Source: an uncultured Actinomycetes bacterium (lineage in GTDB: Bacteria > Actinomycetota > Thermoleophilia > UBA2241). From it: a stretch of 64,000 nt of DNA. The notes beneath the pieces are model-generated. The model was not told the DNA's origin. It saw only the letters and a program-made list of their open reading frames with translations, and did not search any database. Every line of letters starts with the position of its first letter. The first letter of the stretch is position 1. Below, piece after piece: positions 8,659-47,981 of the stretch. Both the position numbers and the translations under genes were made by a program. The stretch is taken from contig CAVWIH010000036.1 of NCBI GenBank assembly GCA_963755025.1, positions 19,956 through 83,955 of the forward strand. Direction: 5' to 3'.

Positions 8659-9084
8659 TCAGTGTGGCCTCCCCTGGTCGGCGCGGGGCGAGGCGGCCCC
8701 GGCGTGAGAAGACGGCAAGTCGAGGCGCAGCTCGCGCGCCTCGTGCAGGTAGACGTGATGGCTCGCCGTCTCGGGCCGTCCGTAGCAGTGGATCAGCACG
8801 CGGATGCAGCGCTCGACGGCGCCGTCGACCGGGATCTCCTGGGCGCAGAGCAGCGGCGTGTGGGCCAGGCCGATCGCCCGCGCGGCCGCGGCCGGAAAGT
8901 CGGAGCGCAGGTCGGGCGTGGCCGTGAAGAGGATGCTCACGATGTCGTCGACCGCCAGGGCGTTGCGCTGCAGGAGCTGCTTGAGCAGCTCCTCGGTGCG
9001 CGCCTTGATGTCGCCCTGGGCGTCGGCGTCGACGGTCGTCGCGCCGCGCAGGGCGATCAGCCTTGAACTCTGAGCGTCGGCCAC
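8659..9084 (-). CDS. aroH: AroH-class chorismate mutase
   Basis: ALRGATT, SILFTATPDL, FPAAAAR, CAQEIPV, CIRVLIH, HVYL..A..LR. Confidence 0.92.
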   Translation of the reverse strand: MADAQSSRLIALRGATTVDADAQGDIKARTEELLKQLLQRNALAVDDIVSILFTATPDLRSDFPAAAARAIGLAHTPLLCAQEIPVDGAVERCIRVLIHCYGRPETASHHVYLHEARELRLDLPSSHAGAASPRADQGRPH

Positions 9085-9133
9085 AGCGCCTCCGGTCGCG
9101 CACGTGAAACGGACAGCCAGTATAGCCGATGAG

Positions 9134-10705
9134 CTACGGTCGCGGCGGCGCCTCGTCGCCTGCGGGGGCGTCGTCGGGTGCGGCCTCGCCTGCGTCGCCC
9201 GGTGCGGATGGGCCGGCGTCGGTGTCGAGCGACGCGTTCTCGGGCTCGACAGGCGCGTCCTGCGGCTCCGTCGGCGTGCCGGCCGGCTCGGCGGGCGCGT
9301 CGTGCGGCTCGACGGCCGTCGGCGGCGCGGGCGGCAGTTCGACGCGCTCGGCTGGAGCGCTGAACGGCGAGTCGCCGAGCGAGGCGGCGTCGTCGTCGGG
9401 GGCATCGCGCTCAAAGGCGGCGGTGGTCGGCGGCGCCATGTCGACGGCCTGGCCGGGGTCGTCGCCCAGCAGGTTGCGCTCGACCTCTTCGGAGGCGCGG
9501 CGCAGCGCTTCGATCTCGTCGCCCGACAGCGCGCGCCAGGCGCCGATCTTGAGGTTCTTGTCGGACAGGGGGCCGTAGCGGCGGCGATGCAGCTCTTCGA
9601 CCGGCAGGCCGAGAGCGGCCAGCATGCGGCGCACCTGGTGCTTGCGACCCTCGTGGATGGTGAGCTCGAGCAGCGTGGTCTTGTTGCTCTGCTTCTCGAT
9701 GCGCGCCTCAGCGGGAGCGGTGCGGCCGTCTTCGAGCTCGATACCGGCCCGCAGCTCGGCGAGCGCGCGCTTGCTGGCGTGACCCTTGACGCGCGCGCTG
9801 TAGGTCTTGGTGACGCCGTAGCGCGGGTGCATGAGCCGGTTGGCGAGCACGCCGTCGTTGGTGAGGATGATCAGGCCCGTCGTCTCGACGTCGAGCCTGC
9901 CCACCGGAAAGAGGATGCGCCCGTCGGGCACCAGGTCGACCAGCACCCGCTCGGCGTGCGGGTCGCGGCGCGTCGAGGCCACGCCGCGGGGCTTGTTGAT
10001 CAGCAGGTAGCGGTACTCGCGCGGCGTCACGACCTCGCCCTCGAGGGCGACCTCGGCCTTCTCCCCCACCTTCTCGCGTGGGAACGTGACCACCGTTCCG
10101 TCGATCGTCACCTTGCCGTCGCGGACGAGCTCGTCGCAGCGCCGCCGCGAGCCCACACCGCTGCGCGCCAGGTAGACGACGAGGGTCATGTCGCCGCCGC
10201 GCTCCTCGCCCCGCTCCGCGCCGCCGCGACCGCCGCCACCACGCTCTGCGCCGGTTTCGCTGCGCGCGCTCTGGTCGCCACGTCCACCGCCGGCTTCGCC
10301 ACGCCCGCCGCCGTACTCGCTGCGTCCGCCGCGCGGTTCGTTGCGGCCGCCGCCGGACTCGCCACGGCCGCTCTGCTCACCACGCCCGCCGCCGCGTCCG
10401 CCACGGCCGCCGCCGCGCCCGCCGCCGCGACGTCCGCGACGAGCGGTGCGCTCGCCGGTCGCGCCGGCCTTACTGTCGGGGCGCGCGGGGCCCTGAGCGC
10501 CGGGCTCGGAAGCGGCGCCCTCGCGAGGCGCGGCCGCACCGCCCGAAAGAGACTCTTCGCCGGGCGCGGCCGGGCCACTGGGCGCAGGCCGCGTGTCGGG
10601 CGCGGGCGGCTCGCCCGGGGTGGGCCGGCGGTCGCCCGAATGAGTGGCGTCGCCCTCGGGGCTCGTGTGGCCGTCGCGCTCGACGGACTCGCCGTCGTGA
10701 CTCAC
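9134..10705 (-). CDS. rluB: 23S rRNA pseudouridine synthase (RluB/RsuA family) with long low-complexity termini
   Basis: S4 domain (LARSGVGSRR), NKPRG, PVGRLD..TTG, EGRKHQVRRM; follows scpB. Confidence 0.9.
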   Translation of the reverse strand: MSHDGESVERDGHTSPEGDATHSGDRRPTPGEPPAPDTRPAPSGPAAPGEESLSGGAAAPREGAASEPGAQGPARPDSKAGATGERTARRGRRGGGRGGGRGGRGGGRGEQSGRGESGGGRNEPRGGRSEYGGGRGEAGGGRGDQSARSETGAERGGGGRGGAERGEERGGDMTLVVYLARSGVGSRRRCDELVRDGKVTIDGTVVTFPREKVGEKAEVALEGEVVTPREYRYLLINKPRGVASTRRDPHAERVLVDLVPDGRILFPVGRLDVETTGLIILTNDGVLANRLMHPRYGVTKTYSARVKGHASKRALAELRAGIELEDGRTAPAEARIEKQSNKTTLLELTIHEGRKHQVRRMLAALGLPVEELHRRRYGPLSDKNLKIGAWRALSGDEIEALRRASEEVERNLLGDDPGQAVDMAPPTTAAFERDAPDDDAASLGDSPFSAPAERVELPPAPPTAVEPHDAPAEPAGTPTEPQDAPVEPENASLDTDAGPSAPGDAGEAAPDDAPAGDEAPPRP

Positions 10706-11277
10706 GGGCGTCTCCTCTCGGCGTTCGACAGCAGCCGCGCGCGCAGCTCGTCGGTCTCGGCGGCCGACAGCGCGAAGGCGTCGAGGTCGTCTAAGTCGGT
10801 GAGGCCGCGCAGGCCGAACAGCTGCAGGAACCGCGCGCTCGTGGCGTACAGGATCGGCGCCCCCGGGGTGTCGGCGCGGCCGCTCTCTTCGACCAGACCG
10901 CGTTCGACGAGCGAGGTGAGCGCCCACTCCGACGAGACGCCGCGGACCTGGGCGACCTCGGCGCGCGTGGTGGGCTGCAGATAGGCCACCACGGCGAGTG
11001 TCTCGAGCAGCGCCGGCGAGAGGTCGTCGGGCCGCCGGGCGCCGGCGAACCGTTCGACGGCCGTTTCGCAGTCGCGCGCCACGCGCAGCGTGTAGCCGCC
11101 CGCTACCTGCGCCAGTTCGATGCCGTGACGCTCGCTCGCATACTCGGCGGCGAGGGCGGCAAGTCCCGCCTCGACCTCGACGGCGGGCTCGTCGCAGGCG
11201 GCGACCAGCTCGTCGATCGGGACGGGTCGGGGAGAGATGAAGATGACCGCTTCGAGGCGGCGGGCGATGTCGATCAT
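10702..11277 (-). CDS. scpB: SMC-Scp complex subunit ScpB
   Basis: LEAVIF, VAGGY, LETLAVVAYLQP.TRAEV..VRGV, PGAP.LYAT..FL..FGL. Confidence 0.95.
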   Translation of the reverse strand: MIDIARRLEAVIFISPRPVPIDELVAACDEPAVEVEAGLAALAAEYASERHGIELAQVAGGYTLRVARDCETAVERFAGARRPDDLSPALLETLAVVAYLQPTTRAEVAQVRGVSSEWALTSLVERGLVEESGRADTPGAPILYATSARFLQLFGLRGLTDLDDLDAFALSAAETDELRARLLSNAERRRP

Positions 11278-11325
11278 GAGACTCGGGGCTCGGGGAGTGA
11301 AGGACGCGGGCGCTACTGGAGCATC

Positions 11326-12138
11326 CTACCCCACGGCCGCGAGCGCGTCATCAGAGCGCGCATCGCGGGGGCCGGGCGCGCCGGTGCGCGTCACCGTGAT
11401 CTCGGCGAACGGCCGCGGCTGGCGCAAGCTCACTTCGCCGCTGTTGTGCAGCTCGAGCAGGGCGAAGAAGGTCACGGCCTTTTCGAGCCTGTCGCGGGGC
11501 GCCACCGCCGAGAACGTGAAGCTCTCGTCGGCGGCCAACAGGTCGCGCAAGCGGCGCAGCTCGGCGACCAGCGTGACGGCGATGTCGGTGATGTGGCTCA
11601 CGTCGGGCGCCGGCGGCTCGGTGAGCAGCACGCCGAGCGCCCGCGACAGCGCGGAGGGCGGCAGGGCCGGGCCGGCGCTCGCGGCGCGCGTGAAGCGCTG
11701 CGGCACGGGCACCGTGCGGTAGAGGCGGCCGGCGTGGTCGGCGAACAGCTCGCCGAGGCGGCCGGCGGCGCCCTTGAAGCGGGCGAAGCGCAGCAGCGTC
11801 TCGAGCAACTCCTCGCCGGCGGCCTCTTCGTCGAGCTCGGCGAGCTCGTCGACGAACGGGCTGCCGGCGTCGAGCAGGCGCCGCGACTTGAGCTCGAGCA
11901 GCGCCGCCACCAGCACGATGAAATGCGAGGTGGCTTCGAGGTCGAACTCTTCGGACTCGGCCAGGCGCAGGATGTACTCGGCGACGATGCGCGAGACGTG
12001 GATCTCCCAGATGTCGACCTCGTCGCGCAGGATGAGCGTGACCAGCAGGTCGAACGGGCCGTCGAAGACGTCGAGGTCGACGTGCAGCCCGTCGAGGGGT
12101 CCGCCCGGGGCCGCGGCGCGCAGCGCCGTGTCGCTCAC
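11326..12138 (-). CDS. scpA: Segregation/condensation kleisin ScpA
   Basis: FDGPFDLL..LI, LLELKSRRLL, VTFFALLEL, Q..PFAEI. Confidence 0.93.
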   Translation of the reverse strand: MSDTALRAAAPGGPLDGLHVDLDVFDGPFDLLVTLILRDEVDIWEIHVSRIVAEYILRLAESEEFDLEATSHFIVLVAALLELKSRRLLDAGSPFVDELAELDEEAAGEELLETLLRFARFKGAAGRLGELFADHAGRLYRTVPVPQRFTRAASAGPALPPSALSRALGVLLTEPPAPDVSHITDIAVTLVAELRRLRDLLAADESFTFSAVAPRDRLEKAVTFFALLELHNSGEVSLRQPRPFAEITVTRTGAPGPRDARSDDALAAVG

Positions 12139-12172
12139 CGCGCCGACCGGCCGCGGGAAGGGCGGTCGCAGG

Positions 12173-13378
12173 TCACTGGTCGGTCTGCCGCATGAACGGC
12201 GGTATGTCGAGGTCGGCGGTGTCGAAGCTCGGTGGCCGCTCGAAGGGCGTGCTCTCGGAGTCGGACGGCGGACGCCGCTCGCCCGACGCCGGGCGCTGGG
12301 CGCCGGGCGCCGTCGCCGTGGCCCGCGGCGTGGCCTCGGGGCCAAAGCCGGTGGCGATCACGGTCACGCTCATGAGGCCTTCGAGCCGTTCGTCGACGAC
12401 CGCGCCGAAGATGATGTTGGCGTCGTCGTCGGCCGCCAGGGCGATCTCGCCGGCCGCTTCGTTGACCTCGTAGAGCGACAGGTCGCTGCCGCCGGTGATG
12501 TTGAGCAGGATGCCGCGCGCCCCGCTGATGGAGGTCTCGAGGAGCGGCGAGCTGATGGCCATGCGCGCCGCTTCGTTGGCGCGCGCCTCGCCACGGCCGC
12601 TGCCGATGCCCATGAGCGCCGTGCCCGCCTCTTTCATGATGGTGCGCACGTCGGCGAAGTCGAGGTTGATGAGGCCGGGCACCGTGATCAGGTCGCAGAT
12701 GCCCTGGACGCCCTGGCGCAGGATGTCGTCGGCGTAGCGGAAGGCTTCGACGATGGTGGTCGTGCGGTCGACGACCTGCAGGAGCCGGTCGTTGGGAATG
12801 ACGATGACGGTGTCGACCGAGGCCCGCAGCTCGTCGATACCGGCGAGCGCCTGGGCTTCGCGCTTGCGGCCCTCGAACGAGAACGGCTTGGTGACGATGG
12901 CGACGGTGAGCGCGCCCAGCTCGCGCGCCACGGCGGCGATGACCGGCGCGGCGCCGGTGCCGGTGCCGCCTCCCTCGCCCGCGGTGACGAACACCATGTC
13001 GGCTCCCTTGAGGGCCTGCTTGATCTGGTCGCGCGATACCTCGACCGCCTGGCGGCCGACTTCGGGGACGGCGCCGCCGCCCAGGCCGTGGGTGATCTCC
13101 TGCCCCACGTGGATCTTGACGTCGGCCTCGCAGGTCTGCAGCGACTGCGAGTCGGTGTTGACGGCGATGAACTCGACGCCGCGGATGCCGGAATCGACCA
13201 TGCGGTTGACGGCGTTCGTGCCGCCGCCGCCCACGCCCACGACCTTGATGGTGGTGACGTAGGCGCGGCCCTGCACGACGGGGTCGTCGGCTTCGGAGCC
13301 CGGAGGCCCGTCGCCGCTCACGTCGGTACGGCGAAACAGTTCGGACAGACCGTCGCGCATGCTAGGCCGATTTGCCAT
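12173..13378 (-). CDS. ftsZ: Cell division protein FtsZ with ~35-40 aa N-terminal extension
   Basis: [27 protein letters not shown] tubulin signature, PFSFEG, INLDFAD T7 loop, C-terminal LDIPPFMR. Confidence 0.97.
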
Positions 13379-14120
13379 TCAGCACCTCCCGAGCGAGGCT
13401 GCGGTACGCCTCGGCGCCTTTGCCCCTGGGATCGTACTTGAGCACCGACGAACCCTGCACGGGCGCCTCGGCGAACTTGATCGTCTTGCGCACCACGGTC
13501 TTGAACACCAGAGGTCCGAAGTTCTCTTTTAAGATCTCGATGGCCTCGCGGCCGTGCAGCGTGCGCGAGTCGAAGAGCGTTGGCAGGATGCCCCTGATGC
13601 GCACCCGCGGGTTGATGTCTTCGCGGATCATCTCGAGCGTGCGCTCGAGCTGCAGCAGGCCGCGCAGCGAGAGGTACTCGCACTGCACCGGCACGATCAC
13701 GCCGTCGGAGGCGGCCAGGGCGTTGATGGTGAGCAGCCCCAGCGAGGGCGGCGTGTCGATGAGGATGTAGTCGTACTTGTCCTGCATGGGCTTGAGGGCG
13801 CGCTCGAGGGCGCGCTCGCGGCCGATCTGCGTGGAGAGCGCCATCTCGGCGCCGGCCAGGTCGATCGTCGCCGCGGCCACGTCGATCTCGTTGCTCAGGA
13901 TGACGTCGTCGATCGGCAACCGGTGGACGAGCACGTCGTACATGCTCTTCTCGAGGTTCTCGGGGTCGATGCCCTGGCTCATGGTCAGGTTGCCCTGCGG
14001 GTCCATGTCGACCGCCAGCACGCGCTTGCCCATCTCGACGAGCGCGACGCCGAGATTGACGGTGGAGGTCGTTTTGGCTACGCCACCTTTCTGGTTTGCG
14101 AAAGCCAGAACCTGAGCCAT
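13362..14120 (-). CDS. ParA/Soj-family ATPase (orphan; no parB in window)
   Basis: Deviant Walker [44 protein letters not shown]. Confidence 0.95.
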
Positions 14121-14265
14121 GGGTCATGCTCCTGTCTAGAGACCGGTTCTCGCTACCATTCTTGGCGAGCCCGATAAACCCTGCAAAGTCGAGGCTCGAC
14201 GCGAGCGTGTGCCAGAGCCCGCGCGCGGCCCCCGCGAGCGCGACCCGACCGCGCTCGCATGCGGC

Positions 14266-14314
14266 GAGGGGCGCGACGGGAGGGCATCTGCGATGCCCTC
14301 CCGTCGCGCCCCTC
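14266..14314. terminator. Perfect 23-bp-stem hairpin between yajC and parA
   Basis: gaggggcgcgacgggagggcatc-tgc-gatgccctcccgtcgcgcccctc; no clear U-tract. Confidence 0.55.
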
Positions 14315-14364
14315 CGCGAAAGCTGCCGGAGCCGCCTGCGAGGCGCCCTCGCCGCACTAAGTGC

Positions 14365-17901
<3,537 letters not shown>

Positions 17902-46934: not shown

Positions 46935-47981
46935 CTAGTAACGGCCTCTGGACCTCGAGTTGCGCTTGCTGCGGGCAATGGCATCGAACTCCTCGAGATA
47001 CTTGCCGGACCCTACGGCGACGCAGGTGAGCGGCGATTCGGCAAGGTGGACGGGCATCTGCGTCTCCTGGCGCAGGCGCTCGGGCAGCCCTTGCAACAGC
47101 GAACCGCCGCCGGCCAGCATGATGCCGCGGTCCATGATGTCGCTGGCGAGCTCGGGGGGCGTCTTGTCGAGCGTGGCCTTGATCGCGTCCATTATGGCCT
47201 GCACGGGCTCTTCGAGCGCCGAGCGTACCTCTTCGGACGTGAGTACGATCGTCTTGGGCAGGCCCGTCACAAGGTCGCGCCCGCGGATCTCGGCCTGCTC
47301 CTCTTGGGGAAGCGGGTGAGCCGAGCCGATCTCGAGCTTGATCTCTTCGGCCGTCTGGCTGCCGATGAGTAGTTTGTACTCTTTCTTGACGTAGCTGATG
47401 ATCGCTTCGTCTAACTCGTCGCCGCCCACGCGGATGGACTGCGAGACGACGATGCCGCCGAGCGAGATGACGGCCACCTCGCTGGTGCCGCCCCCGATGT
47501 CGACGATCATGTTGCCGGTAGGCTCGGCCACCGGCAGCCCGGCGCCGATCGCGGCGGCCATGGGTTCTTCGATCAGGCCGGTCCAGCGCGCGCCGGCCGA
47601 GTAGGTCGCTTCTTCGACCGCACGCTTCTCGACACCGGTGACGCCCGAAGGCACACAGATGACGACACGCGGGTGAGCCCACTTGTTCTGGTTCACCTTG
47701 CGGATGAAGTGGCGCAGCATCTGCTCGGTCACGTCGAAGTCGGCGATGACGCCGTCTTTGAGCGGCCGGATGGCGCTGATGGAACCGGGGGTGCGGCCGA
47801 GCATGCGCTTGGCCTCGGCGCCCACCGCGTGGACTTCGCCGGAACGGTGGTCGATAGCCACGACCGACGGCTCAGACAGCACGATGCCGCGGCCGCGGAC
47901 GTAGACGAGAGTGTTGGCGGTACCAAGGTCGACGGCCACGTCGCGCGCGCCGAAACCCGTGAGGAAGTCGAAGAAACCGAT
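46935..47981 (-). CDS. mreB: Actin-like MreB (start is either ATC at 47981 or GTG at 47939)
   Basis: [46 protein letters not shown]. Confidence 0.97.

Follow-up and report, generated by a model that had tools for sequence, protein, structure and literature searches.

Why does a gene for FtsZ stand between a parA gene and scpA, away from the dcw cluster in which the canonical division ftsZ is located? The question is raised by the minus strand of a window of 64,000 nucleotides (the whole stretch of DNA analyzed here; G+C ~70%), which is part of contig C36 (CAVWIH010000036.1) of a metagenome-assembled genome (MAG) of an uncultured soil Actinomycetes bacterium of the class Thermoleophilia (3.37 Mb, 39 contigs, completeness 84%, contamination 5%). 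In this window, a gene for an orphan (non-Soj) ParA-type ATPase of 252 amino acids (aa), named parA2 (13362..14120), overlaps a gene for a full-length FtsZ paralogue of 401 aa, named ftsZ2 (12173..13378). Here, we report that parA2-ftsZ2 is a two-gene cassette in all 7 Thermoleophilia families sampled and that FtsZ2 appears, from sequence comparison, to be an FtsZ core bearing the partner peptide of an orphan ParA lineage. FtsZ2 is proposed as a direct partner of ParA2 because the tag sits on a small protein, named X, behind a related ParA in other Actinomycetota and on FtsZ in Thermoleophilia; we give the proposal a slightly better than even chance of being correct. Actinomycetota are without Min and Noc (10.1101/2025.07.02.662783), and the choice of the division site in this phylum is an open question.

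The window carries a second, full-length ftsZ

FtsZ2 scored 433 bits against the NCBIfam ftsZ equivalog TIGR00065 (cut-off 295) and matched the Pfam families Tubulin (167 bits, 6e-49) and FtsZ_C (120 bits, 5e-35). The nucleotide-binding signature GGGTGTG, the T7 loop (NLDFADV, N-x-D-x-x-D) and the C-terminal peptide DLDIPPFMR (12188..12214, minus strand), which is the anchor-binding peptide of FtsZ, were all present in the translation, as the initial annotation of this DNA had stated. The GTPase motif columns were invariant in 30 FtsZ2 sequences, and the C-terminal peptide motif was retained in FtsZ2 of 6/7 families. The AlphaFold2 model (mean predicted local distance difference test score, pLDDT, of 82.8) showed a core at residues 43-345 with values mostly >90, a short helix at residues 10-16, and values <50 at residues 17-38.

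The initial annotation had considered the gene either a relocated ftsZ or a second copy; it is a second copy, given the canonical dcw-linked ftsZ on contig C33 of the same genome. There, the cluster murE/F-mraY-murD-ftsW-murG-murC-ftsQ ends in ftsZ1 (L003 13239-14333, G000 contig C33). Compared with its closest relative, ftsZ1 contains four single-base indels in the GTPase domain and is unreadable in one frame. Because the dcw copies of the relatives are intact and another gene of the C33 cluster, ftsW, matches its family only in part, the indels are likely assembly errors; a real pseudogene is also possible. Two SepF-family genes (C18 20436-20651 and C30 21192-21401) accompany the two FtsZ genes.

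In a tree of 62 FtsZ rows, the ParA-linked copies (24/24) formed one clade (100/96), which was recovered in 100% of 200 bootstrap trees, and 26 Thermoleophilia dcw FtsZ1 copies formed another (86/81). Both clades, together with two Coriobacteriia sequences, made up an actinobacterial group (100/96), in which the order among the three had little support (58/32). A quick tree of 109 rows agreed; the trees omit near-duplicate and long-branched sequences, 14 of them in the case of the quick tree. Since the families are each monophyletic within the FtsZ2 clade, the sequences fit vertical descent of FtsZ2 from the class ancestor.

The parA2-ftsZ2 pair recurs in all Thermoleophilia families sampled

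Conservation was analyzed in 41 genomes (the window's own and 40 relatives) from 7 families and 24 genera of one class. FtsZ was found in 41/41 genomes, with two copies in nearly all, and ParA was encoded directly upstream of the FtsZ2-type copy in 39/41, namely 23/25 of family f1, to which the window belongs, and 16/16 of the six other families. Completeness is 61% and 74% in the two f1 genomes that lack the ParA-linked gene. The pair was also present in 6 named MAG loci (Thermoleophilia, Gaiellales, Solirubrobacterales), two of which, both from Thermoleophilia, had the full order queA-tgt-parA-ftsZ-scpA-scpB-rluB; parA-ftsZ alone was found in the other four (one Gaiellales, two Solirubrobacterales, one "uncultured Actinomycetes"). 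Across the phylum, sampled evenly with 201 genomes, two ftsZ copies were detected in 16/16 Thermoleophilia and one in nearly all of the other 185; the phylum tallies for ftsZ copies, X and peptide include genomes flagged unpublished (G041, G057, G085, G117, G123, G152, G178, G204). Tandem ftsZ-ftsZ pairs without ParA were observed in two other Actinomycetota families (L144-L153; G083, G124, G163, G214, G226). These genomes, four of one family and one of another, were examined as exceptions, and their tandem pairs are a separate duplication.

The two genes overlapped by 4-71 nucleotides (nt) in 43/43 loci and by exactly 17 nt in 26. Start codons for these counts were assigned beside the conserved N-terminal motif described below, a rule that missed L018 and L020, though both carry the peptide. 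In the window, the parA2 stop is TAG 13362-13364 and the ftsZ2 start is ATG 13376-13378 (17-nt overlap at 13362..13378, minus strand), and a Shine-Dalgarno-like GGGAGG run lies within the 3′ end of parA2. The overlap of stop and start may reflect translational coupling, and co-transcription of the pair would be expected because the genes overlap. Metatranscriptome contigs of two runs (90-95% alike, so from relatives) fell inside parA and inside ftsZ2. None of the RNA-library contig pieces listed crossed the parA/ftsZ2 junction with 31 letters on each side, and contigs in an RNA library are no proof of transcription.

An arrangement unique to this assembly, or a chimeric one, had been named in the initial annotation as a finding that would overturn its proposal. 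Such an origin is contradicted because the same order was found in 23/23 f1 loci and short DNA contigs from two runs, each belonging to a different study, span both the parA/ftsZ and the ftsZ/scpA junctions; one of the runs is possibly the window's own source.

It had further been proposed that ftsZ was recruited into a ParA-scpAB operon. The part that stands is that ftsZ2 fills the slot between parA and scpA, and the order parA-ftsZ2-scpA-scpB, with ParA upstream and ScpB downstream of the best ftsZ match, was found in 23/23 f1 loci. The part that does not hold beyond f1 is the scpAB link, as neither scpA nor scpB was present within ~6 kb of the second ftsZ copy in the six other families (0/16 genomes). 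In five genomes of these families, scpB was located on another contig, 15 kb off or 1.07 Mb off. No third conserved gene was found downstream of ftsZ2, where the next gene encodes gamma-glutamyltranspeptidase in f2, f3 and f5 (L119, L126, L117) and other genes are found in f4. The invariant unit is therefore parA-ftsZ2, and scpAB lies outside the unit found in all 7 families. An ancestral parA-partner-scpAB operon would nevertheless fit the gene orders, because the scpAB link is real in f1 and recurs elsewhere as parA-X-scpA-scpB. A functional tie of parA2-ftsZ2 to ScpAB is plausible by analogy, since the mycobacterial orphan ParA Rv1708 is reported, in the available text of PMC10482377, to bind ScpA and ParB.

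ParA2 belongs outside the ParB-linked Soj group

ParA2 carries the deviant Walker A motif of ParA/MinD ATPases (KGGVAKTT) and matched Pfam AAA_31 (204 bits, 3e-60) and CbiA (1e-26). A secondary match to the MipZ family reached 44 bits, and ParA2 was not classed as a MipZ. Its identity to the 29 other members of an alignment covering the 7 families was 64-93%. Its closest solved relatives by sequence were PDB 8ray ("ParA family protein") and 4pfs/5ihp ("Cobyrinic Acid a,c-diamide synthase").

ParA2 was the sole ParA-like match in the 84%-complete genome, and no separate parA-parB pair was found in that assembled 84%. Five relatives assembled in few contigs (G010, G011, G020, G030, G036) have a separate parA-parB pair, with 41-45% identity. 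No parB stands beside parA2, which thus lacks the linkage of Soj in ParABS systems. In a tree of 48 ParA rows, the ParB-linked Soj proteins split off (100/99) from a side that holds an ftsZ2-linked clade (100/99), an X/scpA-linked clade (99/97) and a third, long-branched clade. The split from Soj leaves the ParA of the window together with the scpA- and X-linked ParAs, which agrees with its earlier description as an orphan ParA; scpAB itself follows only in f1. The rows of the tree do not include Rv1708, PldP or ParH.

FtsZ2 starts with a conserved peptide that dcw FtsZ lacks

All FtsZ2 proteins start with the consensus (K/R)-R-(A/P)-S-M-(R/K)-(D/E)-G-(P)-L-x-x-L-F-R-x-T, located in the window at residues 1-18 (13325..13378, minus strand) and followed by a putatively disordered linker at residues 19-42 (13253..13324, minus strand). 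Across 30 sequences of the 7 families, M1, L11, L14 and F15 were invariant, R4, S6, M7 and T18 were at least 90% conserved, and position 8 was R or K in nearly all. A conserved positive charge at the N-terminus, a flexible region behind it and a gene that overlaps parA are the sequence features of a ParA/MinD-activator partner, and FtsZ2 has all three. In the dcw FtsZ1 copies read (G000, G004), both the peptide and the linker were absent, and the protein starts directly before the GTPase core. The linker length was estimated from the N-terminal stretches to range from ~20 to ~170 residues between families. The long linkers of some families hold secondary conserved motifs, such as a TVEHV-containing stretch and an ERL-x-R-x-F-S stretch (L115, L120, L126; L097, L111, L117, L128).

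When a profile of the peptide was searched against the 201 phylum genomes, the sole strong match (E 3e-9 or better) in each Thermoleophilia genome was the start of FtsZ2 (16/16, E 3e-14 to 3e-9). A weak match at G090:C2 was rejected as an alternative frame of a methionine sulfoxide reductase-like gene. A word-based search with residues 1-40 of FtsZ2 returned 11 proteins, all of them FtsZ. The peptide profile also gave a weak match on a short frame upstream of a GGDEF-like frame (L204 2679-2747, G029 contig C18), in which stop codons come after the peptide. The 5.5 kb analyzed at this locus yielded no ParA, and the frame may be a remnant.

Identity with the N-peptide of ParB was considered and rejected, as profile-profile comparison by hhalign with nine actinobacterial ParB N-peptides gave a probability of 0.35% (E 0.17). 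Prediction of a complex of two ParA2 with ATP, Mg and FtsZ2 residues 1-45 scored 0.13 and 0.26 against a mark of 0.32, and, having no controls, was used neither for nor against the partnership.

A similar peptide is found on a small protein behind ParA in other Actinomycetota

In five single-contig outgroup genomes, the DNA downstream of the closest ParA relatives was inspected, and in two of them the end of the ParA gene was overlapped by a small open reading frame (ORF) starting with R-R-(A/V)-S-L-P-G-A-D-E-L-F-R-x-T. The encoded family, X, comprises proteins of 112-192 aa with the peptide M-x-R-R-A-S-L-P-G-A-D-E-L-F-R-x-T, for which a basic linker was predicted at low confidence and a helical domain at the C-terminus with good confidence. 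X was found in 50/201 phylum genomes, including 0/16 Thermoleophilia; the count for family f9, 14/14, rests partly on genomes flagged unpublished. No match of X was obtained in Pfam, NCBIfam or PDB.

X was encoded directly behind ParA in 26/26 loci examined, and this ParA was 48-53% identical to that of the window. One or both scp genes directly followed X in 5/26 loci (both in four, scpB alone in L185), and where both were present, the order parA-X-scpA-scpB parallels parA-ftsZ2-scpA-scpB of the window. Loci L194, L195, L199 and L201, from genomes flagged unpublished, were left out of the X locus counts, of the ParA tree and of alignment A6, from which L186 is missing as well. At loci where scpA directly follows parA (L155, L157), the ScpA N-termini read were without the peptide.

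Comparison of the FtsZ2 and X peptides by hhalign gave a probability of 92.8% (E 4.1e-7, 24 columns), compared with the ParB control above. When six-frame translations of the 41 Thermoleophilia genomes were searched with the X peptide profile, only weak matches were obtained (E 0.006-0.5), eight of which, with the top three overall among them, sit on FtsZ2 starts. When the X profile was used in a "longer" search, 17 proteins (P0014-P0030) were obtained, mostly singleton fused gene calls of the types ParA-X, X-ScpA and ParA-X-ScpA. No new class of cargo carrying the tag emerged from the FtsZ2 word-based or the X-profile searches. One of the 17, a 1514-aa Streptomyces protein annotated as "SAV_2336 N-terminal domain-related" matched the X profile at 8e-57.

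Genes surrounding parA2-ftsZ2

The minus-strand order by Pfam is queA, tgt, yajC, parA2, ftsZ2, scpA, scpB, an rluB-type gene, 3-deoxy-D-arabino-heptulosonate 7-phosphate (DAHP) synthase and prephenate dehydrogenase; Pfam and direct reading confirmed the earlier description of a 17-nt parA-ftsZ overlap followed by scpA, scpB and rluB. The start of scpA (11326..12138; SMC_ScpA, 4e-19) is probably GTG 12138, 34 nt past the ftsZ2 stop, within a longest ORF of 11326-12345. It is followed by scpB (10702..11277; SMC_ScpB, 3.5e-48) and by the gene of the rluB-type pseudouridine synthase (9134..10700), whose start is not fixed and whose S4 and PseudoU_synth_2 domains were matched in ORF 9134-10927. 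Upstream of parA2 lies yajC (14365..14991; YajC, 7e-19), with tgt and queA (TGT, Queuosine_synth) further upstream; all of these are on the minus strand. The usual tgt-yajC-secDF neighborhood seems divided in this genome, with queA-tgt-yajC before parA2 and secD-secF (L003 15018-17125) on a different contig, downstream of the dcw ftsZ1.

The statement that the window holds no ftsQ, ftsA, mur, sepF or parB was borne out: mur genes and ftsQ are on C33, SepF genes on C18 and C30, and weak ParB_N matches on C11 and C13. The sole FtsA-domain match in the window is an MreB gene at 46935-47939 on the minus strand (Pfam 6e-152). A second FtsA-domain match was seen on contig C14, in an open frame also of 358 aa, like the MreB frame of the window. 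A terminator scan gave 2 sites versus 2.0 expected, nothing above chance, and an Rfam scan of 9000-15200 gave no match.

Discussion

The simplest account of these observations is that the partner of this orphan ParA has an N-terminal tag, carried by an FtsZ copy in Thermoleophilia and by the C-terminal domain of X elsewhere. FtsZ2 is then probably a cargo of ParA2. The N-terminal peptides of ParB, ParG, MinE and PomX stimulate their ATPases. By the mechanism proposed here, the N-peptide would dock FtsZ2 onto the ATP-bound ParA2 dimer and stimulate its ATPase, and FtsZ2 filaments, displaying many such peptides, would be carried as cargo by a nucleoid-associated ParA gradient. In this way, the location of FtsZ2 with respect to the nucleoid would be set by ParA2, and so would the site of the division ring, by way of the C-terminal peptide that the two FtsZ proteins share and of co-assembly of FtsZ2 with the dcw FtsZ1. 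What the sequences show is the gene pair and its conservation, the paralogy of FtsZ2, the peptide and the likeness of this peptide to that of X; that the two proteins bind, that the ATPase is activated and which way regulation runs are inferred. The earlier proposal of a ParA-driven FtsZ system is thus taken up in part, in that a direct link gains indirect support from the N-peptide; ParA2 may position, inhibit or simply accompany FtsZ2.

A more far-reaching version may tentatively be put forward, in which an ancestral ParA partner made of tag, linker and small DNA-binding domain exchanged the DNA-binding domain for FtsZ. FtsZ would be both cargo and activator of the ParA gradient, and the tag on X would identify the partner of ParAs of the PldP/Rv1708 type. 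ParA/MinD activators are thought to arise by a short tag moving between unrelated domains, and ParG is listed among the activators with a positively charged N-terminus (PMC7993993). In ParF-ParG (type Ib, plasmid TP228), a small ParA is combined with a small protein that has a flexible N-terminal tail and a DNA-binding domain. X is like ParG in layout: it is encoded behind a small ParA, and a disordered linker joins its N-peptide to a small helical domain at the C-terminus.

Several points weigh against a direct ParA2-FtsZ2 partnership. X, which matches no characterized family, is a candidate ParA partner by gene position. The link between the FtsZ2 and X peptides is one profile-profile comparison of ~30-column alignments, made after the likeness had been spotted by eye. 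Plain hidden Markov model (HMM) searches connect the two peptides weakly: outside the class, the FtsZ2 peptide profile gave weak matches in the 201 genomes (E >1e-4), one of them on the start of an X from a genome flagged unpublished, and FtsZ2 was missing from the matches of the X N-peptide profile in the window's own genome, where the best match (E 0.023) lay elsewhere. The N-peptide had no match to that of ParB. In the ParA tree, the ftsZ2-linked clade joins the third, long-branched clade first (95/80) and then the X/scpA-linked clade, and because of this branching, the ftsZ2-linked and X/scpA-linked ParAs may not be strict orthologues. Finally, the divisome link of FtsZ2 may not be universal because the C-terminal peptide has been lost from the FtsZ2 proteins of f2.

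One alternative is that the two proteins make no direct contact, FtsZ2 being a specialized divisome paralogue merely co-expressed with ParA and its N-peptide serving, for example, contact with ScpA/SMC, the membrane or a protease. FtsZ paralogues with divided labor are known from archaea and some Alphaproteobacteria, according to the available text of 10.1101/2025.09.29.679267, and the reported binding of Rv1708 to ScpA and ParB (PMC10482377, available text) implies that the lineage has partners other than a tagged protein. A statistical link to a proven ParA-activating peptide, that of ParB, is also absent. However, ParA is the one constant neighbor of both peptide-bearing proteins (43/43 FtsZ2 and 26/26 X loci), whereas scpA and/or scpB follow in 5/26 X loci and in 1/7 Thermoleophilia families, and the ScpA N-termini of L155 and L157 lack the peptide. 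A peptide at the extreme N-terminus on a flexible linker is, moreover, the layout of ParA/MinD activators (PMC7993993). We regard co-expression without contact as unlikely.

Still less likely is a negative action, in which nucleoid-bound ParA2 captures or caps FtsZ2 through the N-peptide and blocks assembly over the chromosome, as a nucleoid occlusion factor or a MipZ-like gradient inhibitor and not as a motor that positions a cargo. The gene pair, its overlap and the peptide would speak for this reading as they do for an activating partnership, and so would the secondary MipZ match of ParA2; ParA-like ATPases that restrain FtsZ are established for MipZ and MinD in the available texts of PMC10482377 and PMC9897490. 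The MipZ match is, however, far weaker than the general ParA match (44 vs 204 bits), and MipZ needs ParB, whereas the ParA2 clade is separate from the ParB-linked one. An inhibitor would also have no obvious need for a dedicated, tagged second FtsZ. A chimeric contig or a decaying duplicate, for which the incompleteness and 5% contamination of the MAG and the four indels in the other ftsZ copy might speak, is practically dismissed by the same arrangement in 39 genomes (including the single-contig G030 and G036), by the independent DNA contigs that bridge the junctions, and by the intact FtsZ2 with invariant catalytic motifs, the indel-bearing copy being the dcw one.

A direct ParA2-FtsZ2 partnership would resemble known systems in part. 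In PomXYZ of Myxococcus xanthus, the division site is marked by a partner that forms polymers and is positioned by PomZ, a ParA-type ATPase bound to the nucleoid; PomX is its filament-forming activator. The cargo there is PomX/PomY and FtsZ is recruited later, whereas here the peptide belongs to an FtsZ paralogue and a PomX/PomY analogue would be unnecessary. Sequence relation to PomX is absent. MipZ of Caulobacter is likewise a ParA-like ATPase acting directly on FtsZ to set the division site, but its action on FtsZ is inhibitory and ParB-dependent, and the FtsZ on which it acts is without a dedicated tag. Like the ParA of the window, PldP of Corynebacterium glutamicum and Rv1708 are second, non-ParB-linked ParAs near scpA-scpB; the difference is that ftsZ stands between parA and scpA in the window. 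These orphan ParAs have been linked to division-site placement (PMC10482377 and 10.1101/2025.07.02.662783, available texts). In what is available of the latter source, the PldP partner is reported as not yet identified and the PldP ATPase as not stimulated by ParB.

As in the known FtsZ duplications (archaeal FtsZ1/FtsZ2, Hyphomicrobiales), the second FtsZ is kept outside the dcw cluster. Bacterial FtsZ paralogues are described as often truncated in the available text of 10.1101/2025.09.29.679267; compared with the known bacterial paralogues, FtsZ2 is full-length, has gained an N-terminal module and is coupled to ParA. A literature search found no paper linking Thermoleophilia or its genera with FtsZ paralogues, supplementary files, which may hold gene lists, being outside the search. 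A search on FtsZ paralogues in Actinobacteria gave nothing on a ParA-coupled FtsZ2, and Thermoleophilia were not mentioned in the FtsZ-evolution papers covered, including the available text of 10.1101/2025.09.29.679267. No paper was found joining ParH with Streptomyces and ParA-like.

A conserved, full-length FtsZ paralogue with an apparent ParA-partner tag leads to the testable hypothesis that ParA acts on FtsZ without intermediaries, and it makes the uncharacterized small protein family X a candidate for the partner of this ParA lineage elsewhere in Actinomycetota. The pair FtsZ2 and X would also offer a natural example of a short ParA tag moved between unrelated domains. If the exchange of a DNA-binding domain for FtsZ is true, the partner that has long been sought for ParAs of the PldP/Rv1708 type in other Actinomycetota would be identified by the tag on X, and in Thermoleophilia, a division polymer would sense the position of the nucleoid itself, with no need for Min, Noc, MipZ or Pom proteins.

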